Shown piece after piece: positions 35,862 through 60,039 of a stretch of DNA of 64,000 nt. Every line of letters starts with the position of its first letter. The stretch's first letter is position 1. The stretch is from NCBI GenBank assembly GCA_963733035.1, contig CAVTBU010000006.1, positions 192,001 through 256,000 on the forward strand, written 5' to 3'. The notes below the pieces were generated by a model. It searched no databases. It was not told the origin of the DNA and was given only the letters and a program-made list of their open reading frames with translations. This DNA is from Pirellulales bacterium. Its GTDB lineage: Bacteria; Planctomycetota; Planctomycetia; Pirellulales; PALSA-1355. A program made the position numbers and the translations under genes.

Positions 35862-36010
35862 ACGATCGAGGGCTTCGTTTTTGCCCACCCCATTAGGTGT
35901 TTCAAGGTCGTAGACTTGACCGGCGCGCTTGCGGCTGGGCAGAATTGCATGATTCGAGTGGCGGCTCGGAGTTTCGACTCAGTACTCCCCGGGAGCCGAG
36001 CGGTTCGCAC

Positions 36011-42133: not shown

Positions 42134-42459
42134 CGCAGTCGCGGGTCACGTGAATTCTGTTGGTTTTTGGGGCAGCCTCATTGTCTTATCTTATGCTAAA
42201 CGGGTTGGACTATGAGTAACATTTCAGAGCTCATTTGTGCGACAGATTCCAGAAATCTAGGTAGCGGCGCTCGCGGCTCTGTACCACGTGACCGAATGTC
42301 AACCGAAGCCGCACGTTTGTTTCGATCGGCGAACAAGTGGGATACAATCGGAGGCGCGCGGCTGTGGGTGACGTGCGATTTGGACCCCCGCTTCGTGTCG
42401 TATTATAGCGCGATGAGCCGACAACAATATCCTTGCCGTCGTTTTTGCGGAGCCCGGTC

Positions 42460-44312: not shown

Positions 44313-44879
44313 ATGCGCGACCATGCCCAACAGGCCGTGACCGAGCTCTTGGTCTTGCGAGCGCAAGCGGGCCATGCCGACGCGCTATCGTTGCTGGTGC
44401 GCGACTGGCACGATCGGTTGGTCCGCCACGCACAGCGACTAACTGGCCACGAGGAGGCGGGTCGTGACGTGGTGCAAGAAGCCTGGATCGACGTGTCACG
44501 CGGTTTATGGGCTCTCGACGATCCCGCTCGCTTTGGCGCATGGGTGTTTCGGATTGTCACCAGGCGATCGGCGTTGTGGATTCGTCAGGAGCAGCGTCGT
44601 CGTCGACGCGAAAAGTCGACCCACGCCGCCAGTCCGACCGCATCGTCGCCGGGCGATCATCGCGAGGCCGGGCGGCGAGCCGAGGCAATCGACGATATGC
44701 ACCACGCCTTGAAAAGACTATCTACCGAAGACCAAGCTCTTCTTGAACTCCGCTATTTGCACGAATTCTCAATTGATGAAGTCGCAATCGCACTTGACAT
44801 TCCATCGGGCACGGCCAAGTCACGACTGTTTCATGCCCGGCAACGCTTAAAAGAGGAACTCCAGAGGGTACCCAAATGA
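44313..44879 (+). CDS. ECF RNA polymerase sigma factor
   Basis: DVVQEAW, FGAW, EVAIALDIPSGTAKSRL. Confidence 0.9.
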   Translation: MRDHAQQAVTELLVLRAQAGHADALSLLVRDWHDRLVRHAQRLTGHEEAGRDVVQEAWIDVSRGLWALDDPARFGAWVFRIVTRRSALWIRQEQRRRRREKSTHAASPTASSPGDHREAGRRAEAIDDMHHALKRLSTEDQALLELRYLHEFSIDEVAIALDIPSGTAKSRLFHARQRLKEELQRVPK

Positions 44880-45244
44880 CACACTCAGAAGACAAACTCG
44901 TTGAGGCGCTCAAGCGGCTCGATTTGGAAAGCGGCGATGATGTGGAGACCCTTTCGGGCGTGGTCGCTGACATGGTGCGCAATCAGTCGCGGTATCTTGT
45001 CGCACTGCCGTGGATCTTCACGTTCGTGTTCCTGGGAGTGGCTGTTTATTCGGCCGTGCGGTTTTTCGCCACCCAAGAGCCTAAAGAGTGGGTGCTTTAT
45101 GCCACGTTGTTTCTAACGGCCATGATCGTTGTGGCAATCTTTAAGTTGTGGTTCTATCTGGTGTGGGTCCGCAATTCGATACTCCGCGAGATCAAGCGTA
45201 GCGAACTTCGCCTGCTCGTCGCCCGATCGTCGAAGGCAGAGTAA
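44876..45244 (+). CDS. Membrane putative anti-sigma factor (DUF6768-like)
   Basis: ATGA overlap with the sigma gene; two TM segments; KLW...RNSILREIKR.EL. Confidence 0.7.
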   Translation: MTHSEDKLVEALKRLDLESGDDVETLSGVVADMVRNQSRYLVALPWIFTFVFLGVAVYSAVRFFATQEPKEWVLYATLFLTAMIVVAIFKLWFYLVWVRNSILREIKRSELRLLVARSSKAE

Positions 45245-47478: not shown

Positions 47479-49070
47479 CTAATGACTTTCGTCCAGACTC
47501 AGCAAGACTCGCCCGATATGAGTCGCCAGCAACGAGTGGCCCGAACTTTCATCGCATGAGTGGCCTGCGGTATGCCAGCGGCTGCGTGGCCCGTCCACAA
47601 CGAGCCAACCCGGCTTGCCTAGGCGCAATGCGCGCGCCAGTGCAATCAATCGCTGAGGATATCCCAGCTCCTGAGAAAACTCAGCCACTAGCGTAATGGT
47701 CACCGAATCACAGTCCTGAAACGAAGATGGAGGCATCAAATGATCAAACTCATTGGAATGCTCAGCAATCGACACTTCCGAGATCATTCCAAGATTTCTC
47801 ATCTCCCAATAGCAGTGGACTGCATAGACATCGTCGGGAGGTCGATCACAGAGATCGTTTGAAAAGAGGCACAACGTTACACTCCCCACCATTCCGACTC
47901 CGACATCGTAGCCATGATAAGCTGTCGAGTCGTTCATACGGTACCTGATCAGCCACACCTCTTTCGGCTCGCGTGTGGGCGGCCAAGCCACTGTTCGGTG
48001 ATCGACAATTTTCAGTTCGTCGGGCGCACGGCCGAGCTCGTTCGGATGGGCGAGCCAATCGGCGAAGGCCGCCATGGCTTGGAAGTTCGGCAATTGGCAC
48101 TCGGAAGGAATGTAACCGCCCTGTTCGAGATCTCTGAGGCACTGTTGTGCTCGGGCAGAATACCTCGCATCACGACAACATCGCGTCAGCCACGCGAATC
48201 CAGCTTGGCGACCTAGTTTGGCCGCTGCATGCGCGCAGCCATTTGCACATCAAGGTCCACATGGTCTAAGGCTAAGGCCATAAGCGCATCTCGCCCGGAG
48301 GTACGAAGATACGGCAACGCCACGGCTGCACTTTGTGCATAGCTGACGTGCTCGCTGTCGGTCAACCACTTCTCAAGTTGTTCAATCCCTTTTGGTGTAT
48401 CAAATGGATGTGCACTGCAAACTCCGTCGCGACACGCGCTATTAGAACAATCGAGGAGGGCCACGGCGAGAAAGCCTGTCGGCCGTAAGTTGCTCAATTT
48501 AACGAGCAGGCGTTTGCGTTCCGGATGATCGTTTTCATACCGTGCGAGTATGACGCTCCATAGGCTTGAATCTGGCGCAAAAGCCTTTCGTGCCGCTCGT
48601 ATCACCGCATCGGTACCCTCGCGCGTACAATACATCGCCAACACGTCCAGGGCGAACAATACGTCGTCGGCCGGGTGGTGGGCCGGTGTACGCAAGCCTT
48701 CGTCGACCACTTTCAGTAGAAGGTCGCCCCCCTGCTTCGCAAGGATTGCGAAGGCGGGACACTCGGCGCTCTCAACCAAATCAAACAAGTGAATTAGTGA
48801 ACTCAGTGCAGACCGGTTCACATCCATTGGAGGCAGATCCAAAATCCACTCCAGGACATGGCAAATAGCTTCCGCGTCAATACGCGACTTGATAGGTTGC
48901 TCGCCCAGCTTCCACAGTTCGTCACTGACGCTTGCACCATGCTCCATTCCGCGTCTCAGTGCTAAAATCAGAGGCGTGTGTGTTGAGAAGTCGTCGAATC
49001 TCATCATCGGTCGGTCACCAAATCCAAATCTTCTGCCCAACTTAATGCTAGCCGAATATGTCGGGTCCAT
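47479..49070 (-). CDS. HEAT-repeat-like hypothetical protein, frameshift near 48235
   Basis: The frame of ORF 47479-48093 extends upstream (AHAAAKLGRQAG...) into ORF 48213-49070. Confidence 0.7.
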
Positions 49071-49238
49071 CAGCAGTCAGAGAGCTCAACGCATATCTCG
49101 ACCTGGCTCGAACCGGCAAGATTTTCAGATTTCCCCATGAACCCACGAAACCCTTCCGGCGTCTAAGGTGTCGACAGGGTCGAGGCCGTGTTGGCGTCCG
49201 ACTGCAGTTGTGACAAGCTTTTACGGGTTGTTCCTTCC

Positions 49239-49319
49239 ATGATGTTCTTACGGCCAAGACTGTTCCAAGAACACGTAGCCGGGAGTTATTGCGCAGCACA
49301 AACGATTGCTGCAAGGTAA
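49239..49319 (+). CDS. Putative 26-aa leader peptide of the tRNA array
   Basis: MMFLRPRLFQEHVAGSYCAAQTIAAR*; rich in A/T-ending and AGR codons; overlaps alternative hairpins. Confidence 0.5.
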   Translation: MMFLRPRLFQEHVAGSYCAAQTIAAR

Positions 49320-49375
49320 TTCCCCCGCGCTACCGCTACGCTTGTGACGCTTGGCCTTTAGGTCTGCTGGCTGCC

Positions 49376-49409
49376 AAAGCCCGATGTCACAAGGACATCG
49401 GGCTTTTTT
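49376..49409 (+). terminator. Intrinsic terminator upstream of the first tRNA (attenuator)
   Basis: AAAGCCCGATGTC-ACAAG-GACATCGGGCTTT followed by a T-run. Confidence 0.85.
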
Positions 49410-49455
49410 GTTAGCCTCATGTCGCGCGACAGCGGGAACCAAACAACAAACGAAT

Positions 49456-49527
49456 GGGTCGGTAGCTGAGACGGTTTAGCGGTGGCCTGAAAAGCCGCAG
49501 ACGAGGATTCGAGCGCCTCCCGACCCA
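49456..49527 (+). tRNA. tRNA-Phe(GAA), irregular T-loop
   Basis: Anticodon arm GTGGC-CTGAAAA-GCCGC. Confidence 0.7.
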
Positions 49528-49563
49528 CTGCGCTCTGCGTGCGCGCTGACGGAGAACACTCAC

Positions 49564-49636
49564 GGCTCGTTCGTCTATCGGTTCAGGATACTGCCCTTTC
49601 AAGGCGGAGAGGTGGGTTCGATTCCCACACGAGCTA
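49564..49636 (+). tRNA. tRNA-Glu(TTC)
   Basis: CTGCC-CTTTCAA-GGCGG; GGTTCGATTCC. Confidence 0.9.
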
Positions 49637-49654
49637 CTGAAGCAACAAAATCAT

Positions 49655-49726
49655 CGGGCTGAAGAGGGACGGCGCCTCGCGTGCCTTGGGAGCACGAGAC
49701 AGTCGGTTCGACTCCGACCTGCCCGA
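49655..49726 (+). tRNA. tRNA-Pro(TGG)
   Basis: CGTGC-CTTGGGA-GCACG. Confidence 0.8.
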
Positions 49727-49736
49727 CTTGCGTGAC

Positions 49737-49808
49737 GGTAGTTGAGGGCTGGTTGCCCAAACCCGGCTGATAACCAGGTGGCGCTGAGTTCGATTCTCAG
49801 AACTACCA
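49737..49808 (+). tRNA. tRNA-Ile(GAT)
   Basis: Loop CTGATAA; GGTAGTT/AACTACC acceptor. Confidence 0.75.
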
Positions 49809-49887
49809 CTGAACGAGAGATCACAAGAAGGAGAAACGACGTTGGCAACTCGCATGCGACTCAAACGCATACGCCCACTCCACATTC

Positions 49888-49959
49888 GGGGTCGTGGCGT
49901 AACGGCAGCGCTTCCGCCTTTTAAGCGGGAAGGTAAGGGTTCGACTCCCTTCGGCCCCA
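49888..49959 (+). tRNA. tRNA-Lys(TTT)
   Basis: TCCGC-CTTTTAA-GCGGG. Confidence 0.88.
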
Positions 49960-49987
49960 CTGCGTTGGCTTCGGCCAGCGATCGCGG

Positions 49988-50060
49988 CGGCGCGTAGCTC
50001 AGTGGTGAGAGCAGGTCTCTTATAAGGACCAGGTCGAGGGTTCGATTCCCTCCGCGCCCA
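49988..50060 (+). tRNA. tRNA-Ile(TAT), rare anticodon
   Basis: Canonical TAGCTCAGTGG D-arm; GGTCT-CTTATAA-GGACC. Confidence 0.88.
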
Positions 50061-50092
50061 CTGTGCGCGCAGAAACGAGGAACAACACGAAC

Positions 50093-50165
50093 GGGATCAA
50101 GGTGCTAGCGGCAGCATGCCTGGCTCTTAACCAGGTCGGTGAGGGTTCAAGTCCCTCTGATCCCA
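50093..50165 (+). tRNA. tRNA-Lys(CTT)
   Basis: CCTGG-CTCTTAA-CCAGG. Confidence 0.88.
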
Positions 50166-50168
50166 CTG

Positions 50169-50264
50169 GAAACAGGCGAGAGGCACGAGGCCACAGGCTA
50201 GAGGGCGACCTTGAACCTCTACTGCTGACCTCTGGTCTCTCGCCTCAGGCCTCTGGCCTGTTTC
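50169..50264 (+). repeat. Heptamer-repeat palindromic hairpin (REP-like)
   Basis: GAAACAGGC (nnnAGGC)x3 ... (GCCTnnn)xn GCCTGTTTC. Confidence 0.7.
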
Positions 50265-50294
50265 GATCTTTGACAATTCGACCAGCGATTCGAC

Positions 50295-50361
50295 GCGCCC
50301 ATGATGTAGCGGTAGCCTGCTGCCTTGCCATGGCGTGCGGGTTCAACTCCCGCTGGGCGCT
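50295..50361 (+). tRNA. tRNA-Gly(GCC), shortened (variable region deleted)
   Basis: GCGCCCA/TGGGCGC acceptor, loop TTGCCAT, only ~67 nt. Confidence 0.65.
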
Positions 50362-50368
50362 TCAATTT

Positions 50369-50442
50369 CAGGGTGTGGGATAGCCTGGTAGTCCGCCTGC
50401 GTCGGGAGCAGGAGAGCGTCGGTTCAATTCCGACCACCCTGA
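50369..50442 (+). tRNA. tRNA-Pro(CGG)
   Basis: CCTGC-GTCGGGA-GCAGG. Confidence 0.88.
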
Positions 50443-50480
50443 CTTTTTGAGAACGCTCTGACCGGTACAATGAGCGAATC

Positions 50481-50798
50481 ATGAATTGGCTTACGCCGTG
50501 GACTCCGATTGTCGAAAGCGATCGCGCGGAAATGCTGACTACCGAACTTCGTCGCGAAGTTGGAGTCGGCCACGTGCTGTTCGGCATTCCGGTAAAACCA
50601 ATTGCAATTCGCCAAGATTGCGACGACGTGCTCTTCGAGCTTCTTGATGGCTCGGGCCGATTCGCCGTCACTCACTTGACGTACGCTCAGCATCCCGAGC
50701 CAGATTCGCAATGGCCTGCAACTCGTCTCTGTGACGATTTGACTCAATTCGAGCGGAGCATCATGCACGTCGATCATTCGACCGCGACCGGCTTATAG
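50481..50798 (+). CDS. Small hypothetical protein inserted in the tRNA array
   Basis: 105-aa ORF filling the gap between two tRNA-Pro genes; EL.RE...GH.L...RQDCDDVLF...VTHLTY. Confidence 0.7.
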   Translation: MNWLTPWTPIVESDRAEMLTTELRREVGVGHVLFGIPVKPIAIRQDCDDVLFELLDGSGRFAVTHLTYAQHPEPDSQWPATRLCDDLTQFERSIMHVDHSTATGL

Positions 50799-50815
50799 CG
50801 ATCGACTCCAGCTCG

Positions 50816-50889
50816 GAGGGTGTAGCGAAGCCTGGCATCGCGCAAGCTCGGGGAGCTTGAGATCGCAGGTTCAAATCCTGCCACCCTGA
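50816..50889 (+). tRNA. tRNA-Pro(GGG), C33
   Basis: CAAGC-TCGGGGA-GCTTG. Confidence 0.8.
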
Positions 50890-50908
50890 CTCGAACGTCG
50901 TCGATTGT

Positions 50909-51457
50909 TCAGCGCTTCCAAATCGTTACGTCGCTGCTGATCGCGATCAATAGCGTTCGGCCAGTGTACGAAAAGCCAAACCCGCGAAGCTCACGCTCAA
51001 TGGCTAGTTTCCAGAATCGTGAGGCAGGTGGATAGATGCTCTCGTACTTGCCAAGAAGCAAAAGACTTGTGTCCGGCCAATCGATGGACAAGGCTTCGAC
51101 GCCCCATCCGTCATCGGTCTGAGTCGGGAGGCCACCACCGACAAGTCCACAGACGCGAATCTCCCTTCCATCAAGTGGACCAAATCCGATGGCAGTCATG
51201 GCGTCTTTGCCGAACCACGATTCTTGATCTGATTCGTCACGATCTCGAGCGACTTTTTCGCCGGTGCGGCAATCGATGATTCCACGCCCTTGAGACGACA
51301 GTACCAGTAGCAGTTCAGAGTCGTCCGCAAAACCAATCTCAGTAAGTCCGCCAATTGCGACGGACGCGACGAACGACCATGGCTCTGGCGGAGCGGTGAC
51401 CGCAGCACGGCGAATTTTGTCTCGCACAGGTTCGAGGTGGTCCATAAGGTTTGCCAT
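50909..51457 (-). CDS. Hypothetical protein antisense within the tRNA array
   Basis: 182-aa ORF that fills the inter-tRNA gap exactly. Confidence 0.7.
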   Translation of the reverse strand: MANLMDHLEPVRDKIRRAAVTAPPEPWSFVASVAIGGLTEIGFADDSELLLVLSSQGRGIIDCRTGEKVARDRDESDQESWFGKDAMTAIGFGPLDGREIRVCGLVGGGLPTQTDDGWGVEALSIDWPDTSLLLLGKYESIYPPASRFWKLAIERELRGFGFSYTGRTLLIAISSDVTIWKR

Positions 51458-51500
51458 GGGTTCATAGGATGGCTCGCCAGTATACCGGATTGATCAATAT

Positions 51501-51575
51501 TGCGGTGGGGCCTGTGTTGGTACAGGCAGGCGCCTGTTAAGCGCCCCTTCGCAGGTTCGATTCCTGCCGCCGCAG
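51501..51575 (+). tRNA. tRNA-Asn(GTT)
   Basis: GGCGC-CTGTTAA-GCGCC. Confidence 0.88.
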
Positions 51576-51587
51576 CTTTCTAGGGAC

Positions 51588-51671
51588 GGAAGGGCAAGCC
51601 AATGGGCGATGGCAGCTGTTTCGAAAACAGTCGAGCGATGAGCCTTGAGGGTTCGACTCCCTCTCCTTCCG
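51588..51671 (+). tRNA. tRNA-Ser(CGA)
   Basis: GCTGT-TTCGAAA-ACAGT; long variable arm. Confidence 0.88.
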
Positions 51672-51675
51672 CTTC

Positions 51676-51747
51676 GTGCTCTTGGCCGATCGGCAGAGGC
51701 GTCAGCCTTCCAAGCTGAACAGGCGGGTTCGATTCCCGCAGAGCACT
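51676..51747 (+). tRNA. tRNA-Gly(TCC)
   Basis: TCAGC-CTTCCAA-GCTGA. Confidence 0.88.
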
Positions 51748-51760
51748 TTCGATCAATCAT

Positions 51761-51831
51761 TCGGGGATCGGCTAATGGTCGGCCGCCTGGCTTTGAACCA
51801 GGCTATGGTAGTTCGAATCTACCTCCCCGAG
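51761..51831 (+). tRNA. tRNA-Gln(TTG)
   Basis: CCTGG-CTTTGAA-CCAGG. Confidence 0.88.
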
Positions 51832-51840
51832 CTTGGAAGA

Positions 51841-51887
51841 CTACCGCCCTGCGCTCGATTGCCGCCCGGCAATCGTGCTCGGTTGCT
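51841..51887 (+). repeat. 47-nt hairpin mini-element (copy 1) inside a tRNA remnant
   Basis: CTACCGCCCTGCGCTCG-ATTGCC-GCCC-GGCAAT-CGTGCTCGGTTGCT, followed by a T-arm/acceptor 3' half. Confidence 0.8.
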
Positions 51888-51925
51888 GGTTTGATTCCTT
51901 CTCCCCGAACTCGGTGACAAAACAT

Positions 51926-52000
51926 TCCGGGGTAGCTGCTGCTGGTAGTGGCGCCTGGCTCTGAACCAGGAGGTCGTTGGTTCGATTCCAACTCCCGGAG
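51926..52000 (+). tRNA. tRNA-Gln(CTG)
   Basis: CCTGG-CTCTGAA-CCAGG. Confidence 0.88.
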
Positions 52001-52020
52001 CTGTTTCGAACGACACGATC

Positions 52021-52106
52021 GGAAGTCATCCGGCCGGATGAGGAGCCTGTCTTGAAAACAGGTGGCGGCCTCGCGCCGCTTGTGGGTTCGAGTCCCACGG
52101 CTTCCG
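52021..52106 (+). tRNA. tRNA-Ser(TGA)
   Basis: CCTGT-CTTGAAA-ACAGG; long variable arm. Confidence 0.88.
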
Positions 52107-52134
52107 CTCAACAGGTCGATTCGTTCAGCAACAC

Positions 52135-52205
52135 AGTCCCGTGGTCCAACGGCAAGACTCCTGCGTCACATCCAGGAAACGATGGTTCAACTCCATCCGG
52201 GACTA
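52135..52205 (+). tRNA. tRNA-Val(CAC)
   Basis: Loop GTCACAT; one stem mismatch. Confidence 0.75.
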
Positions 52206-52211
52206 CTCGAT

Positions 52212-52285
52212 GTCCAGGTACGCCAATTGGCAGAGCGGCACGGCTTAAACCCGCGCGGATGCCGGTTCGACTCCGGCCTTGGGCA
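52212..52285 (+). tRNA. tRNA-Leu(TAA), short variable loop
   Basis: CACGG-CTTAAAC-CCGCG. Confidence 0.8.
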
Positions 52286-52295
52286 CTGTCAACGC

Positions 52296-52368
52296 GGCTC
52301 GGTCGGCAACGGCAGACCACCTTGGCTTAGAACCAAGGATGCTGTGGGTTCGAATCCCACCTGAGCTA
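52296..52368 (+). tRNA. tRNA-Leu(TAG), short variable loop
   Basis: CTTGG-CTTAGAA-CCAAG. Confidence 0.85.
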
Positions 52369-52382
52369 TTTAGTAGAGACTC

Positions 52383-52457
52383 GTCCTCGTGGAGTAGTCT
52401 GGAGTGCTCGCCTGCCTGTCACGCAGGAGATCACGGGTTCAAATCCCGTCGGGGACG
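52383..52457 (+). tRNA. tRNA-Asp(GTC)
   Basis: CCTGC-CTGTCAC-GCAGG. Confidence 0.92.
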
Positions 52458-52539
52458 CCTTTTGATTGTTGTACGCGAAATCGTCTGTGGCGCGGAGTGT
52501 TCCGCAACGCCTCGACGAACTGCAACGCAACGTAAATCT

Positions 52540-52613
52540 GGCACGGTACGCCAATCGGCTGAGCGGCGAAGCTCAAACCTTCGTGTCTGCGGGTTCGACT
52601 CCCGCCTGTGCCA
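52540..52613 (+). tRNA. tRNA-Leu(CAA), short variable loop
   Basis: CGAAG-CTCAAAC-CTTCG. Confidence 0.85.
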
Positions 52614-52619
52614 CTGTTC

Positions 52620-52706
52620 GGGTTGTGCTCCTCGTGGCGGCCTGTAAAGCCGTTGTCACAAAAGAAGCGAGGTGGGCGACGAATGGTTCGATTCCTTCAC
52701 AACCCA
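52620..52706 (+). tRNA. tRNA-Tyr(GTA)-like, lacking a D-arm, long variable region
   Basis: GGGTTGT/ACAACCC acceptor; GCGGC-CTGTAAA-GCCGT. Confidence 0.65.
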
Positions 52707-52711
52707 ATTGA

Positions 52712-52784
52712 GGCCCGCTCGTCTATCGGTTGAGGACGCCAGCCTCTCAAGCTGGAAGGACGGGTTCGATTCCCGTGCGGGTCA
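52712..52784 (+). tRNA. tRNA-Glu(CTC)
   Basis: CCAGC-CTCTCAA-GCTGG. Confidence 0.9.
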
Positions 52785-52790
52785 CTGTAT

Positions 52791-52873
52791 GGCCAAGTGG
52801 TGTAACTGGTAAACACGCGACGCTCAGAACGTCGTGCCCTTGCGGCGTGGGAGTTCGAGTCTCCCCTTGGTCA
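52791..52873 (+). tRNA. tRNA-Leu(CAG), long variable arm
   Basis: CGACG-CTCAGAA-CGTCG. Confidence 0.9.
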
Positions 52874-52890
52874 CTGAAATATTGAATTGA

Positions 52891-52959
52891 CGCAGGTGAG
52901 CCAGTGCTCAGCCGAGTTTCATAAGCTCAGCCCGTCGGGTGCGACACCCGAACCTGCAA
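52891..52959 (+). tRNA. tRNA-Met(CAT), initiator-like C1:A72, degenerate
   Basis: Loop TTCATAA, short D-arm, T-loop TGCGACA. Confidence 0.6.
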
Positions 52960-52964
52960 CTTAC

Positions 52965-53040
52965 GGCCGGGTACGCAAACTGGCAAAGCGACGAGGTCGA
53001 GAGCCTCGTGATTTTGTGAGTTCGACTCTCACTCCGGTCA
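52965..53040 (+). tRNA. tRNA-Leu(GAG), C33, short variable loop
   Basis: CGAGG-TCGAGAG-CCTCG. Confidence 0.8.
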
Positions 53041-53069
53041 CTTGAATGAGATTGCGGCCAAAACTGATC

Positions 53070-53507
53070 CTACAGTGCGAGCACGCGGCACACCTCTCGA
53101 ATCCAGATCTCACCGATCCATTCCAGGTCGGCATACGGAGAGATGCGTGAAGCGGTCCAGCCGCTTTCGTCGAGTACTCGCATCATGCCGGGTGCCGCCA
53201 AGGCGTTCGTTGTGTGGATGATCACTGGGCATGTCGGCGGTTTCGTCGCGAGAAAGTCGGCCACATCGCGTCCGGTGCCGGGGTCACGCATGACACCGCC
53301 GATCAATCGGTTGGGTCCGAGATCGTGATCGAGGCAGATGAGAATCGGTTCGCCGCAGTGAACCTTCAGCCAGACGATCATATCTGGTGCATTGTCGAAC
53401 ACAATTGATTCATGGCCTGGGCAGCGACTTGCGAGGCACGGCAACATTGCGGCGATCCGTTCCGGCTCGTCGTCAAGAATTGCGACTACTTTTGATTCGC
53501 TTGCCAT
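53070..53507 (-). CDS. Cyclic-phosphate-processing receiver-like domain protein
   Basis: ILDD...ICLDHDLG...GTGRDVA...VIIHTTN pattern. Confidence 0.75.
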   Translation of the reverse strand: MASESKVVAILDDEPERIAAMLPCLASRCPGHESIVFDNAPDMIVWLKVHCGEPILICLDHDLGPNRLIGGVMRDPGTGRDVADFLATKPPTCPVIIHTTNALAAPGMMRVLDESGWTASRISPYADLEWIGEIWIREVCRVLAL

Positions 53508-53533
53508 GTCAACAAGTCTAACAAATCACATTC

Positions 53534-53606
53534 GATCCCGTGGTCCAACGGCTACGACGCCTGGATGACACCCAGGAGGCAGATGGTTCAACTCCATCCG
53601 GGATCA
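53534..53606 (+). tRNA. tRNA-Val(GAC)
   Basis: CCTGG-ATGACAC-CCAGG. Confidence 0.85.
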
Positions 53607-53616
53607 TTTGCGAATC

Positions 53617-53688
53617 GGTCTGTAGGTGTGTTCGGCGGCACACCTCCTCGGTAAGGAGGAAGGCCGGGTTCGACTCCCGGACGGACCT
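53617..53688 (+). tRNA. tRNA-Thr(GGT), C33
   Basis: CCTCC-TCGGTAA-GGAGG. Confidence 0.82.
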
Positions 53689-53757
53689 TCAACCGAGCAC
53701 GCGACATAGGCGTGCCGCGAGCGCAGGGCGAAAGGAATCGAGATGGATAGAAGTGAG

Positions 53758-53795
53758 GGGCTGCTGGTCCAACGGCAAGACGCTTGGATTGAAGT
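53758..53795 (+). pseudogene. 5' half of a tRNA-Ala-like gene, 3' half replaced by a hairpin
   Basis: GGGCTGCTGGTCCAACGGCAAGACGCTTGG resembles the start of the next tRNA-Ala; no T-arm follows. Confidence 0.6.
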
Positions 53796-53837
53796 CAGCG
53801 TCGATGGCAACGGCGGATCGACGCTCGTCAAATACAT

Positions 53838-53908
53838 GGGCTGCTCGTCCAACGGGAAGACGCCTGGCTTGCAACCAGGAAATCGGGGTTCGACTCCCCG
53901 GCGGTCCA
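53838..53908 (+). tRNA. tRNA-Ala(TGC)
   Basis: G3:U70; CCTGG-CTTGCAA-CCAGG. Confidence 0.9.
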
Positions 53909-53919
53909 CTGAATAAAAC

Positions 53920-53990
53920 GGGCTCATGGTCCAAAGGGAAGACATCAGGCTGGCAGTCTGAAGATCCGGGTTCAATTCCCGGTGAGTCCA
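53920..53990 (+). tRNA. tRNA-Ala(GGC)
   Basis: G3:U70; TCAGG-CTGGCAG-TCTGA. Confidence 0.88.
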
Positions 53991-54008
53991 CTGATACGGG
54001 AAACCTTT

Positions 54009-54311
54009 TTACATCGGAATACCGGCATCAATCGCAGCTTGTCGATTGTGGCCGGGTTCGAGAAGTGTCGTTCCTTGATAGACCTCGACGTTCGCGTCCA
54101 TGAGATCAGAAAGAGGCAGCTCAACATAGACCTGGGTATTACGGTCGGTCTCGACAACGTTGAACCACGGTTGTGCAACGAAACTGCGCACCTGGATTTC
54201 CAGTGACTCGCCGGGCAACAGCGTGAAGTCGTGAGGCCACGGCTCGACCCAAATGACGCGCAATTGCGCTTCGTCGTTGGTCACGCCGATCTTTGCGAAG
54301 AACTCACTCAT
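54009..54311 (-). CDS. Small hypothetical (immunity-like) protein
   Basis: 100-aa ORF in an inter-tRNA gap; VIWVEPW..DFTLLPGE. Confidence 0.6.
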   Translation of the reverse strand: MSEFFAKIGVTNDEAQLRVIWVEPWPHDFTLLPGESLEIQVRSFVAQPWFNVVETDRNTQVYVELPLSDLMDANVEVYQGTTLLEPGHNRQAAIDAGIPM

Positions 54312-54443
54312 TACCCTAGCGTATTGCGGAAGCGTACGACAAACAAGTGATTCGGAAGGTAGATGCTATGGCAGCGGCGAGGGACTGCGTTAGGCTCCGA
54401 GTCACGAGGGATTGTTTTATCCGTTGTTTTGAGGAGCTCAATC

Positions 54444-55622
54444 ATGGCCACTCGACCGCAAGACTGCAGCACAACGAAGCCAGTACTGTTCCTGGGTCTC
54501 GAATTAGGGCAGCGAACCTGGAAGTTGGGGTTCACCGTGGGTTTGGGTCAGAAGCCGCGGCGACGTGAGATCGCTGCCGGTTGCATTCAGGCACTGAAAC
54601 GAGAGATCAATGAGAGTAAGCAACGTTTTGGTCTGCCTGCGGATGTGGAGGTGATTAGCTGTTACGAGGCAGGCCGTGATGGGTTTTGGCTGCATCGTTG
54701 GCTGGTGTCTGAGAACGTCACAAACTTGGTGGTTGACTCGTCTAGCATTCAAGTGCCGCGGCGGCAGCGACGGGCCAAGACCGATCGTCTGGATTTGGAA
54801 CAATTGTTGACCATGTTGGTGCGCTGGCATCAGGGCGAGTCGAAAGTCTGGAGCGTGGTGACGGTGCCGAGTGAAGCGGAAGAGGACGTTCGGCATTTGC
54901 ATCGCGAGTTGGAAACGCTGCGGGCGGAACAGACCAGCCACATCAATCGAATCAAGGGGCTGTTGATCGGTTGCGGCGTGGTGATTGATGTGAACCGCTG
55001 GCTACCGAAACGGCTCAAAGCAATACGGCTTTGGAATGGCTCGCCGTTGACCAGCGATTTGCGGCAACGGGTATTGCGGGAGTTCGAGCGGATGCAGGTG
55101 GTCAATCGACAGGTTCGCGAGCTGGAAAAGGAGCGTGCCGCCCGGATTCGCAGCAACGAAACTGACAAGAGCGTCGCCCAGGTGCGGACGTTGTTGGGCG
55201 TGAAGGGCATCGGCGTCAACAGCGCGTGGATGTACGTGCAGGAGGTGTTTGGCTGGCGAAAGATCAAGAATCGTCGTCAATTGGGTGCGCTCGTGGGGCT
55301 GACCGGCAGTCCGTATAGCAGCGGCAACTTGGAGCGCGATCAGGGAATTACAAAGGCTGGAAACCGCCGGATGCGAACAATGGCTGTCGAAATCGCCTGG
55401 GGATGGTTGGCATTCCAACCCGGCAGCGATCTGAGCCGTTGGTATCACGATCGATTCGCGGCCGGAAACAAGCGTCTTCGTCGCATTGGAATTGTGGCGC
55501 TGGCAAGAAAGCTGTTGGTGGAGTTGTGGAAATACCTGGAGACCGGCGTGCCGCCTTGCAACGCGGAGCTGACCGAGTGGGAGGACAAGATTCACTACAC
55601 CCCTTCCCTTACGCCGGCGTAG
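54444..55622 (+). CDS. IS110 family transposase/recombinase
   Basis: LGLELG, CYEAG, KTDRLD, GIG, SSG and ITKAGN motifs; GAGGAG SD. Confidence 0.92.
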   Translation: MATRPQDCSTTKPVLFLGLELGQRTWKLGFTVGLGQKPRRREIAAGCIQALKREINESKQRFGLPADVEVISCYEAGRDGFWLHRWLVSENVTNLVVDSSSIQVPRRQRRAKTDRLDLEQLLTMLVRWHQGESKVWSVVTVPSEAEEDVRHLHRELETLRAEQTSHINRIKGLLIGCGVVIDVNRWLPKRLKAIRLWNGSPLTSDLRQRVLREFERMQVVNRQVRELEKERAARIRSNETDKSVAQVRTLLGVKGIGVNSAWMYVQEVFGWRKIKNRRQLGALVGLTGSPYSSGNLERDQGITKAGNRRMRTMAVEIAWGWLAFQPGSDLSRWYHDRFAAGNKRLRRIGIVALARKLLVELWKYLETGVPPCNAELTEWEDKIHYTPSLTPA

Positions 55623-55629
55623 CGATTGG

Positions 55630-55860
55630 ATCGGTGCGAGTATGGAGCGTCTGAACGACTGACGTCGAGACTGGAAAGCGACCGAGTATCCGGCGGGTAC
55701 GAGTTAGGCTCACCGAAAGGTAGATGGGATCGCTTTCATTATGGCTTCCCGAGAGCGTCCAGGACGCATAGGGCATAGGGTGATCGGCGATGATGCCGGC
55801 ACGGATAGAAGCTAGTCGTTGGCCTCGGCCACAACGATCAGCGGAAGCCGCCAGTCATGA
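55630..55860 (+). ncRNA. Candidate bridge/seek RNA of the IS110 element
   Basis: Contains AAGGTAG (target left flank + core) and ATAGAAG (element right end + core); boundaries approximate. Confidence 0.6.
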
Positions 55861-56218
55861 CGTTGAACCGACAGAAGAAGTGTTTTGAGGAATGGCAGGA
55901 CAAATGAATGTGCATCCCAGCACGGCTCCAGCCGCGGCGTGCGGCCAGAGCCGTCACGGAATCATTCACCCGCCCTGACCTGGCTATCCCTTGTTGGGTT
56001 GCTCTTCAGCAGAGCTCAACTCCGTTTCACCAGGCAGGCGAAAGTATATCACGACTCAACGTTGGATGAGGAGCTTGACAGGTGCGCATCCATAGAAGCC
56101 GGATACGGTTGGCCGGGCCGCTCTGCTAAGGCGGTTCCCGCTCGTCGGGATGAGGGTTCGAATCGGGCACCGCGGCAAAGCCGTGGTCTACCTTCCGCTG
56201 GTGAAAAGGCTCCTCCAA

Positions 56219-56581
56219 TCACTTCGCCTGTTCCACGTCGATCGCGGCCCGCAGCTCCTCAACATTCGCGAATTGTTGAAGTGGAAGATCGAACGAGTAG
56301 TCGAGATCAATGATTCGAAGGGGGATGCCGAGATGCCTTTGAACGATCAGCGCGGCACTTAGGGCGGCGTCTGTCATCCCCGATATCGAGATCGCGTCGC
56401 GTTTCCGGCTGAGGTCGACCATCGTGAAGTCGTCGCCCTCAGAATAGTCCGCTTCAATTGGGATTCCGATGGACGTATTATATCGAATCTCACCGAATCC
56501 CCTGACCGACTTGAAAATGTCTTGCAACGCCTCGACGGTAAATAGCCGTTTGTCGTCGCTGAACAGCAGAAGACTTTGCAT
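56219..56581 (-). CDS. Putative cognate immunity protein
   Basis: 120-aa acidic ORF starting 16 nt after the toxin stop. Confidence 0.65.
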   Translation of the reverse strand: MQSLLLFSDDKRLFTVEALQDIFKSVRGFGEIRYNTSIGIPIEADYSEGDDFTMVDLSRKRDAISISGMTDAALSAALIVQRHLGIPLRIIDLDYSFDLPLQQFANVEELRAAIDVEQAK

Positions 56582-56596
56582 AGCAATTACGTACTC

Positions 56597-57867
56597 CTAG
56601 GGCTCGAGTCGCACCTTGCCGGGCACGGATAGTTCCTTGAGCAGGGCTTCAAAAGCTGACTTCGCCTCGGGCGAGTTGGTGATGATTTCGATTGATTTAA
56701 AAGGCGTTTCGCCACTCTTGATAATTGTGCGAACTCTCGTCAAATCGTCACGCACTTTGTCCAGAATCACGGCCCGGATGTCCTCTCGGATAGATGAGCC
56801 GGGCACATAAGGACTCTTGCCGGCCTTCGCTACGTGCTTCGCTTCAAGAATTATCGTATCCCGGTATCCATCGATTGCAAAAGACTGGCCGCCGCCTGAT
56901 ATCGTGTAGTTGTAGGGGCCGGTCTGCTTGATTTCATATTGACTCGCTGCCGATTTCGTGGGTGTAGGCTTGCGAGGAAGCTTCGCGACGAAGTCATCAA
57001 GAGTGCCTCCCACTTTTCCAGGAACTTTGCGAAGCGCCCTGCCGAGCACAGCCTTCCCGAGTCGCAGGATTGCCGGTGCGGCCACGACGGCGGATGCAAT
57101 TTCAAACTCAATGCCGGTTGACTGCAAACCACTCGGTGTGCCGCCCCTGGCTACGGCATGCCCGACTTCCTCGATACCCTTGCCACCGACGATCGTCTCT
57201 GCCGGGGTGAACGCCGAATGCTGTTTCGCTGGGCGTGATAGCTCTTAATGCGTTTCGGCAATTCCTTGATTTGGCGACGGGTGTGATCCAATGCATTCTT
57301 TGTCTGCCACCAAGCGTGTGCCAGGTCCAGCATGTGTGAGTCGGAACCGTCGGACTCGTCGCTTCCGCCGCTACCGGGCCCCTTGCTGCGGGGTGAGCGA
57401 CTCTTGCCGGTGTTGATTCCGCCCCCACCGCCCCCCTTATTGATCCACTGCCCGCCGATCGGCGTTCCCTTGGGCGCCCGGGGATGATCGGCCTCGTTCC
57501 ATTCGACAACAAGTGAGTCTGATTCAGTGAATCGCTCGATCGCATGCCACGTCCTGCTGTCCCGTGCCTCGATCTGTTGAATCGCACGCAGTTTGTCTTC
57601 CGCCTCGGCCGAGATCTGAGCTGCCCATTCCAGAAGCTCACGATCGCGACGAGCGTTGGCTTCGGCGGATTGCAGCTCGCGCAGCTCCTTTGCCTGTCGA
57701 TACGAGAATCGTGCTAGCCGCCCCAACTCCTCGCGTTGAGCTTTCGCCTGTGCCTCGGGAGGCATCATTCGTGGAATCGGCCTACCGAGAATCGCTTGTG
57801 CAAATAGCCAACCTTCGCTGGGCTGCGAAACTCCGGCGACATCCCGTGTCTTTTTGTAACGGTCCAT
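56597..57867 (-). CDS. Polymorphic toxin with restriction-endonuclease-fold (Tox-REase-2-like) C-terminus, frameshift near 57240
   Basis: N-terminus LFAQAILG / RDRELLEW / EWNEADHPR; C-terminus YE...IDG...LEAK...SPY...EIITN (PD-D/ExK); GAGGAG SD. Confidence 0.75.
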
Positions 57868-57891
57868 GACGCTCCTCTTCATGGGTGCGAG

Positions 57892-58088
57892 AAAAAGAGC
57901 CCGCACCCGGTGCGCGCTTCGCAAGCGCGCACCGATTACGGGCTCTTTGGATACTCGTTGTCAGGGGCCTACTGGCACGAGGACGTGCAGTCGAGCTCTT
58001 CGGATACCCCGGTCACTCATGGTGACCTTGCCCAGCGATCAGCTCGCCGATTGATTCGGAACCTAGCACAAAGGGCGGCCTAGTTTCT
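57892..58088 (-). promoter_or_regulatory. Conserved leader: putative promoter, structured RNA and intrinsic terminator (copy 2)
   Basis: TAGAAA-18-TAGGTT with extended TG; shares TGAGTGACCGGGGTATCCGAAGAGCTCGAC...CCTGACAACGAGTATCC...GAGCCCGTAATCGG with copy 1. Confidence 0.75.
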
Positions 58089-58179
58089 AGTCGAAGATTT
58101 AATGGAGTGATTGGTCTGAGCAAATACGTCGCGCGAACCGTGCGGCGTGGATCTGTTTCCTTTTCTAATGTCTCAGCTC

Positions 58180-58269
58180 GCCTCGATGGTGAAACGGACG
58201 ATCACTCCTTGCTTCTAACAAGGCCCGGTATTTCTGGGAGACGCGGGGGTTCGAATCCTGGTCGGGGCA
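58180..58269 (+). tRNA. tRNA-Arg(TCT), degenerate (insertion in variable region, weak T-stem)
   Basis: GCCTCGA/TCGGGGC acceptor; CCTTG-CTTCTAA-CAAGG. Confidence 0.6.
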
Positions 58270-58279
58270 TTTTGAAGAA

Positions 58280-58312
58280 GAGTGGTTGGTGGTCAGTGGC
58301 TAGTGGTCAGTG
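58280..58312 (+). repeat. Short heptamer tandem repeat (AGTGGTY)n
   Basis: AGTGGTT GGTGGTC AGTGGCT AGTGGTC AGTG. Confidence 0.65.
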
Positions 58313-58368
58313 AAGCAAGGGGCGGCGAACACAAAGCGTGCTCGTCTGTCCTACCTGTGGCCTGTGGT

Positions 58369-58415
58369 CTACCGCCCTGCGCTCGGCAGATGCCCATCTG
58401 CCGTGCTCGGTTGCT
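58369..58415 (+). repeat. 47-nt hairpin mini-element (copy 2) inside a tRNA remnant
   Basis: CTACCGCCCTGCGCTCG-GCAGAT-GCCC-ATCTGC-CGTGCTCGGTTGCT followed by GGTTCAATTCCT. Confidence 0.8.
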
Positions 58416-58616
58416 GGTTCAATTCCTCGGCGAGGCACTGAGAAGGCGGCGAGTTGAATGATCATGTTGCGAGCGATCCTAACAGCGTTGAGACGATTCC
58501 TGTTTGGCCAGCCTGTGGCCAGCAGGGTGACCGCGAAGAAACCGTCGGCAGAAGCCGTCGCGTGTGCGGTCGTTCATTCGACGACGTCGGCGGATCGCAA
58601 CGAAGGGAGGCCTACC

Positions 58617-59108
58617 ATGAACGCAGCCTATGACAAACTATGCGAACACCTGACCAACCAGAACGTCGGCTTTTGGTCGCGCAGCGAGGACTTGTCGATC
58701 TGCACCGACTTTCGGGGCGAGGTCGGTACGTACCGGATCTTCGCTCGGATTGATGCTGATGACAGCTTGTTCCAGGTCTTCGGTCATTCGCCGGTTCGCG
58801 TTCCGCCAGGCTCGCGGCCGGCGATCGCCGAGGCCGTGGCGCGGATCAACTGCGGTCTGAAGGTCGGCAAGTTCGAGATGGATTGTGACGAGGGCGAGCT
58901 GCGGTTCCAGGCGGCCCAGATCCTGCCCGACGACGATCTCGACGAGCAGACGATTCGGCGACTGATTGGTACGACCATGTCGATGTTGAACATTTACCTT
59001 CCGGCCATCTTGTCGGTCATCTACGGCAACGAACTGCCGAAGGATGCCGTCAGACACGCAGAGCCCGGGCGGTATGTGTCCGACGAAAACGAGCGCGGTG
59101 AGGCCTGA
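58617..59108 (+). CDS. YbjN-like (CesT-fold) protein
   Basis: GGGAGG SD; AEAVARIN.GLKVGKFEMD..EGELRF. Confidence 0.75.
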   Translation: MNAAYDKLCEHLTNQNVGFWSRSEDLSICTDFRGEVGTYRIFARIDADDSLFQVFGHSPVRVPPGSRPAIAEAVARINCGLKVGKFEMDCDEGELRFQAAQILPDDDLDEQTIRRLIGTTMSMLNIYLPAILSVIYGNELPKDAVRHAEPGRYVSDENERGEA

Positions 59109-59121
59109 TCACCGCGCATTT

Positions 59122-59194
59122 GTCCTCGGAGTGTGCCGGATTCGCACGCGACCCTGCGAAGGTCGAGGACCAGGTTCAACTCCTGGCGAGGACA
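59122..59194 (+). tRNA. tRNA-Arg(GCG), rare anticodon
   Basis: CGACC-CTGCGAA-GGTCG; GTCCTCG/CGAGGAC acceptor. Confidence 0.85.
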
Positions 59195-59241
59195 TTTTGG
59201 AATGTCGCGGGATTGTGTACCGTAGTAGCGGGAGACACTCA

Positions 59242-59706
59242 ATGAACTTGCAGCATGAAAATCACGGTCCCTTGCCGACGCGCGAGGACATTAATGTCTT
59301 CGACTCGCTTGACGAACGTTGCGCTTGCGATCACTTTTTGGGCAAGAACATGGACGAGGCTCAGGCACTGTTCAGTGATAATTTCTTGCGTTACCAGGAG
59401 GATTTGGTGTTTATGGGGCCTCGTGCCTTCCGCTTCTACGTTCATGCTGCCATGCAATACCTCATGAGCCCCGATGCCTCAGGTGACGGCGATGCCGCCA
59501 ACAGTTTCGCAGGGCTACTTGAATTCAGACTTGAACATGAGAGGAACGAAGTGCAGCCAGTGGCAGGTGAGCTAGCGCGGATATGCAATTACCTCTTCGA
59601 AAATATTAGTCGATTCGAATGTGAGCCATCCATCTATGGCGATGTTGGCGCTCGTTATGCAGCTCTGAATAGCGCGCTCGAACAACTCGCCACGACACAG
59701 CCCTAA
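59242..59706 (+). CDS. Hypothetical (immunity-like) protein
   Basis: GGAGA SD; SLDE..A..HF.GK...EDL.FMGPRAF.FY. Confidence 0.65.
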   Translation: MNLQHENHGPLPTREDINVFDSLDERCACDHFLGKNMDEAQALFSDNFLRYQEDLVFMGPRAFRFYVHAAMQYLMSPDASGDGDAANSFAGLLEFRLEHERNEVQPVAGELARICNYLFENISRFECEPSIYGDVGARYAALNSALEQLATTQP

Positions 59707-59750
59707 CCCAACATGGTCCGGCTCGTGCAGCAGCATCAATTCTCAAATCT

Positions 59751-59822
59751 GACGCTGAAGCCAGACGGCGTGGCAACTGCCTGCAAAGCAGTTCACAGCG
59801 GGTTCGACTCCCGCCGGCGTCT
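59751..59822 (+). tRNA. tRNA-Cys(GCA)
   Basis: ACTGC-CTGCAAA-GCAGT; U73. Confidence 0.88.
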
Positions 59823-59967
59823 TTCAACGAAGTCAGAAAGGAGATTGAAGCGAGGTTGATTCAGCCGGTTCCAGCGGCGCGCGGTGGCTCGTCCTTGATG
59901 AAAGGCGATTGCTACACGTGTGTTCCGTGAATGGGTTCTGCAGAAGGCTGCGTCTACCGCAACCAAC

Positions 59968-60039
59968 AGATGGTTAGCTCAGTGGGTAGAGCACCAGACT
60001 TTGCATCTGGCTGTCACGGGTTCGACTCCCGTACCAAAC
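59968..60039 (+). ncRNA. tRNA-like RNA with incomplete acceptor stem
   Basis: Canonical D and T arms; CCAGA-CTTTGCA-TCTGG; only 4 bp of acceptor stem. Confidence 0.55.

Follow-up and report, generated by a model that had tools for sequence, protein, structure and literature searches.

Long tRNA arrays occur widely, pass between genomes and phages, and as a rule stay silent. To our knowledge, control of their expression is known in one cyanobacterium only, where it acts via promoter repeats, and we are aware of little study of gene regulation in Planctomycetes. Among leader-peptide systems, the trp leader terminates transcription when no ribosome is present, while termination at tnaC and toiL is Rho-dependent. 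PMC8421152 describes a long array (L-array) in Anabaena sp. PCC 7120 that was horizontally transferred, is normally silent, is switched on by impaired translation and has RNA-repair genes associated with it. Direct repeats that span the -10 box and start site of a sigma-70 promoter are credited there with its control, together with a presumed repressor, and Planctomycetes are named among the phyla with L-arrays. PMC4807772 likewise reports planctomycetes with degenerate, horizontally acquired tRNA clusters, including tRNA-Ile(UAU).

Here we analyse a 64,000-nt stretch of a contig from a Pirellulales bacterium (the window), in which a short leader open reading frame (ORF) and an intrinsic terminator stand before such an array. 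Judging by the comparative sequence evidence, the site is likely to be a ribosome-dependent transcription attenuator heading an array of spare tRNA genes that has spread horizontally, an element that probably lets the tRNA block be transcribed only when translation falters.

Organization of the locus

The tRNA array occupies 49456..59822 on the plus strand and comprises 30 tRNA genes predicted by ARAGORN, running Phe-Glu-Pro-Ile-Lys-Ile-Lys and so on to Cys; protein genes and an IS110 transposase gene lie between them. Also embedded in it are a cREC_REC (cyclic-phosphate processing receiver) gene on the opposite strand, an ORF with a Tox-REase-2 domain and a YbjN-like gene. The host genome holds 52 dispersed tRNA genes that form a full set, so that the array tRNAs are supernumerary; 44 more tRNA genes lie at C6:241456-268483 (contig coordinates) behind two leaders. 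Being supernumerary and horizontally spread, the array is an L-array in the sense given to the term in PMC8421152. On the other side of the spacer a minus-strand ORF (48213-49070) without a Pfam match diverges, and the plus-strand terminator of the spacer therefore ends no upstream gene. Further upstream in the window, genes for a bestrophin (35897-36971) and an amidase (42433-43883) look split.

The leader ORF of the window copy (49239..49319, plus strand) reads MMFLRPRLFQEHVAGSYCAAQTIAAR from the ATG at 49239 to a TAA at 49317-49319. Its 26 codons and 16 different amino acids are as described in an initial annotation of this DNA, and the codons called atypical there are truly rare by the host genome's own usage: TTA makes up 2% of Leu codons, AGA 2% and AGG 3% of Arg, GTA 8% of Val, AGT 10% of Ser and CCA 14% of Pro. 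The base pairings proposed from the single sequence are likewise present, namely GGCCAAG (49252-58) with CTTGGCC (49350-56) and CGTAGC (49274-79) with GCTACG (49335-40) for strands 1 and 2, CTTGTGAC (49341-48) with its complement GTCACAAG (49386-93) for strands 2 and 3, and a 13-bp terminator whose last T lies 46 nt before the start of tRNA-Phe at 49456. Overall, a 216-nt stretch folds to a minimum free energy (MFE) of -82.8 kcal/mol as against -64.4 +/- 4.8 in 200 shuffles (z -3.8, 0/200 as good).

Contrary to the initial reading, however, the 26-codon ORF is a frameshifted derivative. Compared with its 91%-identical relative L002, the window copy has 2 nt fewer in a GCGCGC tract after codon 18, and its frame consequently runs into the TAA at 49317-19, 22 nt short of strand 2. 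In its canonical form the ORF is 31-45 codons long and stops at a UGA within strand 2, which in the window would be the TGA at 49345-49347. In the second leader copy of this genome, the same GCGCGC tract has lost 1 nt and the ORF stops after 24 codons. This 1-nt deletion is shared by copy L006 of another genome and is thus not an assembly error of the host genome; the 2-nt deletion of the window copy could still be one. Five of the 51 full copies are frameshifted, both host-genome copies among them, and all five retain at least the first 17 codons, the shifts coming after codon 17. It follows that some hosts can do without the stop position, or else that the five copies are in decay. Under the model set out below, strand 2 would remain free when a ribosome stops at 49317-19; the window copy might then leak, let transcription through constitutively, or depend on pairing within the RNA alone.

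Distribution of the element

The 390-nt spacer was matched in 27 of 61 relatives, in 20 of 33 genomes of the family and in 56 of 401 sampled genomes of the order, a patchy occurrence of the leader and its homologous arrays. A second copy of the spacer lies in the same genome 20.7 kb downstream, beyond the window. Using an nhmmer profile search over fetched loci, we obtained 52 distinct copies, 51 full and one truncated (L012), and all full copies share an ECF-type promoter motif, the conserved ATG, an open frame and a nearly invariant terminator. A strict pattern, applied to 400 genomes sampled from the whole phylum, matched one other genome. This one is from a different family within the class, and its copy has the same anatomy with an ORF that ends at the same TGA.

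Larger collections were scanned by pattern as well. Genome contigs (596 Gb) gave at least 119 stretches, for which volume the pattern is too short; among the matches listed, 16 matched the spacer by blastn, 4 of those only over the pattern itself, and the named true matches among those listed are all from Pirellulales or other Planctomycetota MAGs. A metagenome sample likewise gave at least 119 pattern matches, and among the matches listed 28 are real by profile, 16 of them holding the 5′ part. In all 16 the ORF ends at the strand-2 TGA, and these ORFs add lengths of 41 and 43 codons that are absent from the genome set. Of 14 IMG/VR pattern matches 13 are due to chance, and the ORF of the remaining copy again ends at the strand-2 TGA. 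The spacer was not found in the plasmid collection, and the phage collection yielded nothing beyond a 59-nt tRNA match.

In the fetched DNA, tRNA genes lie downstream on the same strand in 45 of 51 copies, mostly in the order Phe-Glu-Pro-Ile-Lys. The first tRNA begins within ~55 nt of the U-run in 35 copies and only ~3-6 nt after it in three, which leaves no space for a separate promoter; copies whose tRNA follows within a few nt lack the terminator-to-tRNA spacer. Between terminator and tRNA-Phe in the window, a search for a second promoter met only GGAACC (49434-49439) with no -10 partner. The embedded YbjN-like gene is 68% identical to a gene directly after the leader in four other loci, so that the leader there heads a protein gene too, and in a fifth locus a YbjN-like gene, apparently split, lies ~790 nt after the leader. 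All occurrences found, other than the truncated L012 and a partial match (L018), are at a tRNA array or at this embedded gene.

Some weak hints of transcription come from Logan contigs of relatives in RNA libraries (shares 0.09-0.17), libraries that may contain DNA; the contigs give no depth, starts or ends, and uncovered parts are uninformative. One such contig spans ORF, terminator, tRNA-Phe and tRNA-Glu, a second runs from the terminator into tRNA-Phe, and a third, of 168 nt, starts at about the end of the -10 motif.

A conserved ECF-type promoter motif

Upstream of the leader ORF, a promoter-like motif at 49139..49166 (plus strand) consists of a -35 element GAACC (49139-49143), a 16-nt spacer and a -10 element CGTCTAA (49160-49166). 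We take AAC in the -35 element together with CGT in the -10 element to be the hallmark of ECF sigma promoters. A YGAACC-N15/16-CGTCTA-like motif is present at 51 of 52 homologous loci, yet has only 8 matches in the 6.6-Mb genome, three of which are on the same contig and correspond to the two leaders and a degenerate remnant. Transcription is predicted to start a few nt past 49166, giving a 5′ untranslated leader at 49167..49238 (plus strand), and in 49 of 51 copies the ATG lies 61-92 nt past the -10 motif. An ECF sigma gene 4.3 kb upstream (44313-44879) was considered as the partner of this motif and rejected: it has a homologue in 9 of 33 family genomes (E 1e-20), just one of them within 8 kb of a (partial) leader match.

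Evidence for translation of the leader frame

Alignment of the relatives, suggested at the outset as a check, shows that ORF start and frame are kept. The start codon is ATG in 49 of the 51 copies, GTG in one and ATA in one. From this conserved position 46 of the 51 ORFs run for 31-45 codons, all to one TGA in strand 2 (CGC TTG TGA C). The ATG-to-TGA distance falls into ten length classes between 93 and 135 nt, all multiples of three, and the 5 other ORFs show four lengths, all out of frame. An open frame +0 is seen in 48/51 copies, compared to 2-30/51 for the other five frames.

The consensus peptide is MMFLRPSSIQERIG.GYSA...P.HPLRL, with the C-terminal end ...P-L-R-L-UGA. Near this end Pro(-4) is encoded by CCG in 23 copies, CCT in 10, CCC in 5 and CCA in 4, and Leu(-3) by CTG in 18, TTG in 17, CTA in 6 and CTC in 3, while Arg(-2) is CGC in 43, CGT in 2 and CGA in one. 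Variability is highest at third codon positions (1.14 bits versus 0.83 and 0.88). Because Pro and Leu near the end vary synonymously, the alignment indicates that the leader frame is translated, and it argues that selection on the residues before the stop acts on the amino acid rather than the codon. No clear Shine-Dalgarno (SD) sequence had been noted in the single copy, and among the homologous leaders a GGAG/GAGG/AGGA core indeed occurs upstream in just 4 of 51. By a crude count such a core precedes 28% of 2231 long ORFs of the host genome, versus a background of 10%; this genome thus makes little use of one.

Codon choice in the leader is unusual at particular positions. The rare codon TTA (2% of Leu codons) stands at codon 4 in 28 of 43 copies and the rare ATA (4% of Ile codons) at codon 13 in 23 of 43; codon adaptation of the leader is 0.545 versus 0.704 +/- 0.089 for genes. 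The array encodes tRNA-Leu(UAA) and tRNA-Ile(UAU), the readers of these TTA and ATA codons. Over the whole leader ORF, array-cognate codons are not enriched (0.664 versus 0.660 in the genome's genes), and for leader codons 2-13 the value is 0.84, a weak figure as the copies are related. It may be RNA pairing rather than decoding that fixes the TTA and ATA codons. The broader proposal that any depleted or cleaved tRNA would be sensed is thus not borne out at the level of codons, since codon matching is absent over the ORF as a whole.

Three mutually exclusive pairings

Of the three pairings read from the window, 2:3 and 3:4 are kept across relatives and 1:2 is probably so, with 86.5% (1:2), 93.5% (2:3) and 98% (3:4) of alignment cells paired. 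Strand 1 (49252..49258, plus strand) is GGCCAAG, spans codons 5-7 and has strand 2's CTTGGCC as its partner. Of the 8 pairs in the 1:2 helix, 4 have changed on both sides. At Pro codon 6 the third base covaries with the non-coding base opposite it (AU in 21 of 51 copies, GC in 12, CG and GU in one each); in the remaining 16 copies this position is unpaired, with an A.C mismatch. Between strands 1 and 2 the MFE structure has a long hairpin, P2, inside the ORF (49275..49333, plus strand), whose length varies among relatives; insertions lengthen its tip and stay in frame. The predicted fold of this segment is more stable than that of shuffles (mean z -2.4, below -2 in 30 of 51 copies).

Strand 2 (49341..49356, plus strand) is CTTGTGACGC. 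It forms the 5′ strand of the antiterminator, contains the canonical TGA (49345-49347) and pairs with strand 1 through TTGGCC. The TGA lies inside CUUGUGACGC in 46/46 in-frame copies, and GTGAC together with CG just upstream is invariant in 51 sequences. The antiterminator pairs CUUGUGACGC with GUGUCACAAG and has a GGCC extension that competes with strand 1. When this helix is slid out of register, pairing drops to 29-44% of cells. Changes in it are mostly U-A to U-G or G-U to A-U, with true compensation at 2 of 14 pairs; covariation is scarce because both strands hardly vary.

The intrinsic terminator (49376..49409, plus strand) has a stem at 49376-49406 (13 pairs, 7 of them G-C), a loop of 5 nt at 49389-49393 and a T6 run at 49404-49409. 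Part of its 5′ arm together with the loop (49384-49393) is at the same time the 3′ strand of the antiterminator. Five of its 13 pairs are compensatory. The base of the stem covaries freely (A-U in 26 copies, G-C in 20), while the upper 5′ arm and loop are nearly constant, a fixity that is unusual for a terminator stem and fits a triple constraint of R-L-stop coding, strand 3 pairing and 3:4 pairing. For the whole terminated structure, 0 of 500 shuffles reached the observed covariation score, a control that overstates significance for related sequences. RNAalifold predicts the terminator alone from the raw alignment and the other helices once gap-rich columns are removed, and the antiterminator when the 3′ arm of the terminator is removed. 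In the MFE structure of the window copy, strand 2 is paired with the 5′ UTR (49206-49218), not with strand 1. A local hairpin of this fold, GUUCUU/AAGAAC, was discarded as it is absent from a more distant subgroup (alignment judged by eye). A scan for terminator-like sites was not enriched overall (15 found, 12.7 +/- 3.4 expected), and the leader site comes first in its list.

In order to compare ribosome positions, RNA was folded under masks representing ribosome footprints. A footprint covers ~15 nt on either side of the P site, and the predictions shift with the bounds chosen. With a ribosome on the stop codon, so that strand 2 is covered, the terminator is predicted in 51/51 copies. With a ribosome over strand 1 or over codons 1-11, the antiterminator is predicted in 48/51 or 45/51, depending on bounds; with no ribosome and the nascent RNA extending to the terminator loop, it is predicted in 29/51 or 34/51, depending on the 5′ bound. 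The attenuator geometry originally read from the single sequence stands in that a translated leader, a terminator and an exclusive antiterminator precede the tRNA array. Its logic has to be revised: as the canonical ORF stops at the UGA inside strand 2, the conserved logic would be that a ribosome on the stop codon masks the antiterminator, and not only that a ribosome sits on strand 1.

Model and alternative explanations

We propose the following model. Transcription would begin at the ECF-type promoter and produce a leader of ~240 nt encoding a short peptide, canonically of 31-45 residues, whose UGA lies within CUUGUGACGC, the segment able to pair with GUGUCACAAG. If a ribosome is on the UGA as polymerase makes the terminator, strand 2 would be hidden, the terminator would form and the array would stay silent. 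If translation is slow, absent or stalled early (over strand 1, codons 5-7), the antiterminator would form instead, and read-through would reach the tRNA genes and the embedded YbjN-like gene. The key pairings in this model are CUUGUGAC:GUCACAAG and GGCCAAG:CUUGGCC. We infer the direction of the switch from the strand-2 stop codon, which is the best-conserved feature and points to a logic in which translation completed in step with transcription turns the array OFF, and translation that is late, stalled or absent turns it ON. Classical trp logic (no translation, OFF) would apply to the minority of copies for which 1:2 is predicted to win without a ribosome. Candidates for slowing the ribosome are TTA4 and ATA13, where a stalled ribosome would cover strand 1, and the array tRNAs that read them are candidates for feedback. 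Selection of P-L-R-L before the UGA suggests that the nascent chain matters, and this chain perhaps slows release, holding the ribosome on strand 2. In vivo, promoter and terminator would have to be active as their sequences suggest.

A wider reading, which we put forward tentatively as a possibility somewhat short of even, takes the element to be a general sensor of translation failure. The leader would be a test peptide of 31-45 codons, and leaving it unfinished, for whatever cause, would release a complete spare tRNA set along with embedded RNA-damage-linked genes (the cREC receiver and the YbjN-like gene). P-L-R-L-UGA would then be a built-in termination pause on the antiterminator in healthy cells, TTA and ATA would provide feedback via tRNA-Leu(UAA) and tRNA-Ile(UAU), and the frameshift variants would be constitutively open alleles. 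Possible triggers under such a reading include tRNA cleavage by anticodon nucleases, starvation and ribosome poisons.

The conservation of amino acids at both ends of the peptide exceeds what a mere 'ribosome ruler' would need. In keeping with this, the leader could be a free-standing small gene, for a trans-acting protein or an sRNA with its own terminator, with the tRNAs transcribed by read-through or from another promoter and no regulated switching. Its own promoter motif and strong predicted terminator would suit such a gene, and trans-acting leader peptides exist, peTrpL reportedly being one. We consider this unlikely all the same, for the stop always lies in the strand complementary to the 5′ arm of the terminator (46/46) and that complementarity is kept, the first tRNA begins a few nt past the U-run in several copies, and the element is confined, L012 and L018 aside, to tRNA arrays or the embedded gene. 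The same conservation, of P-L-R-L before the invariant UGA and of the R-P-S and E-R positions, could also mark an arrest peptide of the TnaC or Erm-leader kind, in which a stall with a specific small molecule or ribosome-targeting antibiotic, rather than general slowness or lack of tRNA, flips the switch. We know of no arrest motif that is recognisable in the leader peptide. Leader ORFs that sense ribosome-targeting antibiotics are known, and in PMC8421152 translation inhibitors induce the array of a cyanobacterium. Stalling at the UGA would, however, hide the antiterminator and lower expression, and the R-L-stop nucleotides are fixed by RNA pairing as well, so that we give an arrest peptide a small chance.

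Much of the peptide conservation does coincide with paired RNA segments, and the leader is strongly structured and lacks an SD sequence, as would be expected of a switch made of RNA alone, with a protein, tRNA or metabolite as its ligand and an open frame that is incidental or RNA-stabilising. At least ten in-frame length classes without a stop and the synonymous variation at Pro(-4) and Leu(-3) are unexpected in non-coding RNA, though, and no Rfam family, T-box or riboswitch was found at 49071-49455 with E up to 1. The sole Rfam match in the spacer is STnc390, an unrelated sRNA model, on the terminator, with 28.7 bits against a gathering score of 50, and no T-box or other cis-regulatory Rfam family was found in 48000-61000 at E up to 1. 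An RNA-only switch therefore appears very improbable to us, and the ribosome-dependent attenuator remains our preferred reading.

Comparison with known systems

The proposed mechanism is explicit, differs from the promoter repeats of the cyanobacterial array and is readable from sequence, with comparative support that is unusually strong. It would extend leader-peptide attenuation from the supply of amino acids to the supply of the decoding machinery, and would make the element a compact natural sensor of translation capacity. The conserved promoter motif offers in addition a handle for finding the responsible sigma factor in Planctomycetes. In a full-text search of largely non-subscription literature, we found no description of leader-peptide attenuation of tRNA genes or arrays.

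Like the L-array of Anabaena, the array described here is long, supernumerary and horizontally spread. Unlike there, the conserved element is a leader ORF with terminator and antiterminator, and PMC8421152 contains neither the word 'attenuation' nor 'leader peptide'. With the erm and cat leaders, bmrCD, toiL-topAI and tnaC the element shares a conserved peptide and, under the proposed model, the principle that the position of a ribosome on a short upstream ORF decides the downstream transcript; it differs from them in that its target is a tRNA array, its predicted termination is intrinsic and its peptide carries no recognised arrest motif.

There is likeness, too, to attenuators such as trpL, hisL, pheL and thrL, which have a short translated leader and four strands with 1:2, 2:3 and 3:4 alternatives, the 1:2 helix being a probable counterpart here. 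As in amino-acid operon attenuators generally, an intrinsic terminator stands before the regulated genes, the stop codon lies at strand 2 and a finished leader would favour termination. In contrast to those attenuators, the targets here are tRNA genes and not biosynthetic enzymes, the leader has no run of one regulatory codon, the peptide ends are conserved as amino acids and the promoter is of ECF type. The trp leader differs further, as about two thirds of the copies here default to the predicted antiterminator without a ribosome, so that no translation would mean ON. The class of mechanism is thus classical, while its target, its peptide family and its promoter are new.

Additional copies of the leader and array

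The leader that heads the supernumerary tRNA array is not confined to the window. On the same contig (C6) of the same genome, a second leader copy and a second array, partial in content, occupy C6:261827-268483, the start of which is included in locus L021. This leader shares 79% identity with the window leader, and its ORF has only 24 codons as a result of a 1-nt deletion. The tRNA genes that follow are ordered Cys-like chimera, Leu, Leu, Val, Ala, Ala, Arg, His, Trp, Thr, Arg, Arg, Arg and Cys. The start of the opening ‘tRNA’, the Cys-like chimera, resembles tRNA-Phe, a likeness suggestive of a deletion derivative. The same contig also carries a degenerate remnant at C6:7639-7800, which lacks the leader ORF but retains the leader’s promoter motif and a strand-2-like CGCTTTTGACGCC, together with a terminator-like hairpin and the 3′ fragment of a tRNA.

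A canonical leader copy was found at locus L195, on a 94-kb IMG/VR contig classed as viral, where a 33-codon ORF ending in HPLRL-TGA is followed by tRNA genes in the order Phe-Glu-Pro-Pro-Ile. Judging from this locus, the array may also be carried by phage or prophage, or else the contig may be misclassed.

Frameshifts at the GCGCGC tract

In alignment A1, which compares the leader copies, all four frameshifts of the clade nearest the window fall in or beside a GCGCGC tract, located in the window copy at 49291-49296, after codon 18 of the leader ORF. Their sizes are –2 in the window copy (L001), –1 net in L003, and –1 in both L021 and L006. The tract may be a mutational hot spot, or frameshifting there may be a recurrent route to opening the switch. 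Whether the 2-nt deletion in the window leader is genuine has also to be considered in light of two apparently split genes elsewhere in the window, a bestrophin-family gene (35897-36971, + strand) and an amidase gene (42433-43883, + strand), each present as two overlapping ORFs that each encode half of the Pfam domain. These are either frameshifted genes or the product of assembly indels.

Protein genes within and upstream of the array

Several protein genes are embedded in the array. A YbjN-family gene (58458-59108, + strand) has 68% identity to genes lying directly 3′ of the leader at L011, L013, L015 and L016, and at a fifth locus, L008, a YbjN-family gene is apparently split and lies ~790 nt downstream of the leader. 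The array is split between tRNA-Ala and tRNA-Arg by an IS110-family transposase gene (54363-55622, + strand) and by a Tox-REase-2 domain ORF (56597-57127, – strand). An ORF at 53070-53507 (– strand), within the array but on the other strand from the tRNA genes, has a cREC_REC (cyclic-phosphate processing receiver) domain (Pfam PF20274, E 1e-10), and a tie to RNA repair signalling is possible.

Upstream of the array by 4.3 kb, an ECF sigma factor gene precedes a DUF6768 gene (44313-45244, + strand). In other genomes, no linkage of homologues to arrays was found, save in genome G014, where one lies <8 kb from a partial leader match.

Unusual tRNA genes

Four + strand matches to Rfam tRNA or tRNA-like models received no ARAGORN call: 50295-50361 (34.7 bits), 52619-52706 (24.3 bits), 52893-52961 (26.8 bits) and 59971-60036 (51.1 bits). 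They probably represent tRNA genes of the array that are degenerate or atypical. Among the array genes are a tRNA-Arg with anticodon GCG (59121-59195, + strand) and a tRNA-Ile with anticodon UAU (49988-50061, + strand), both anticodons being uncommon among bacteria. An Ile(UAU) gene has been reported in planctomycete tRNA clusters (PMC4807772).
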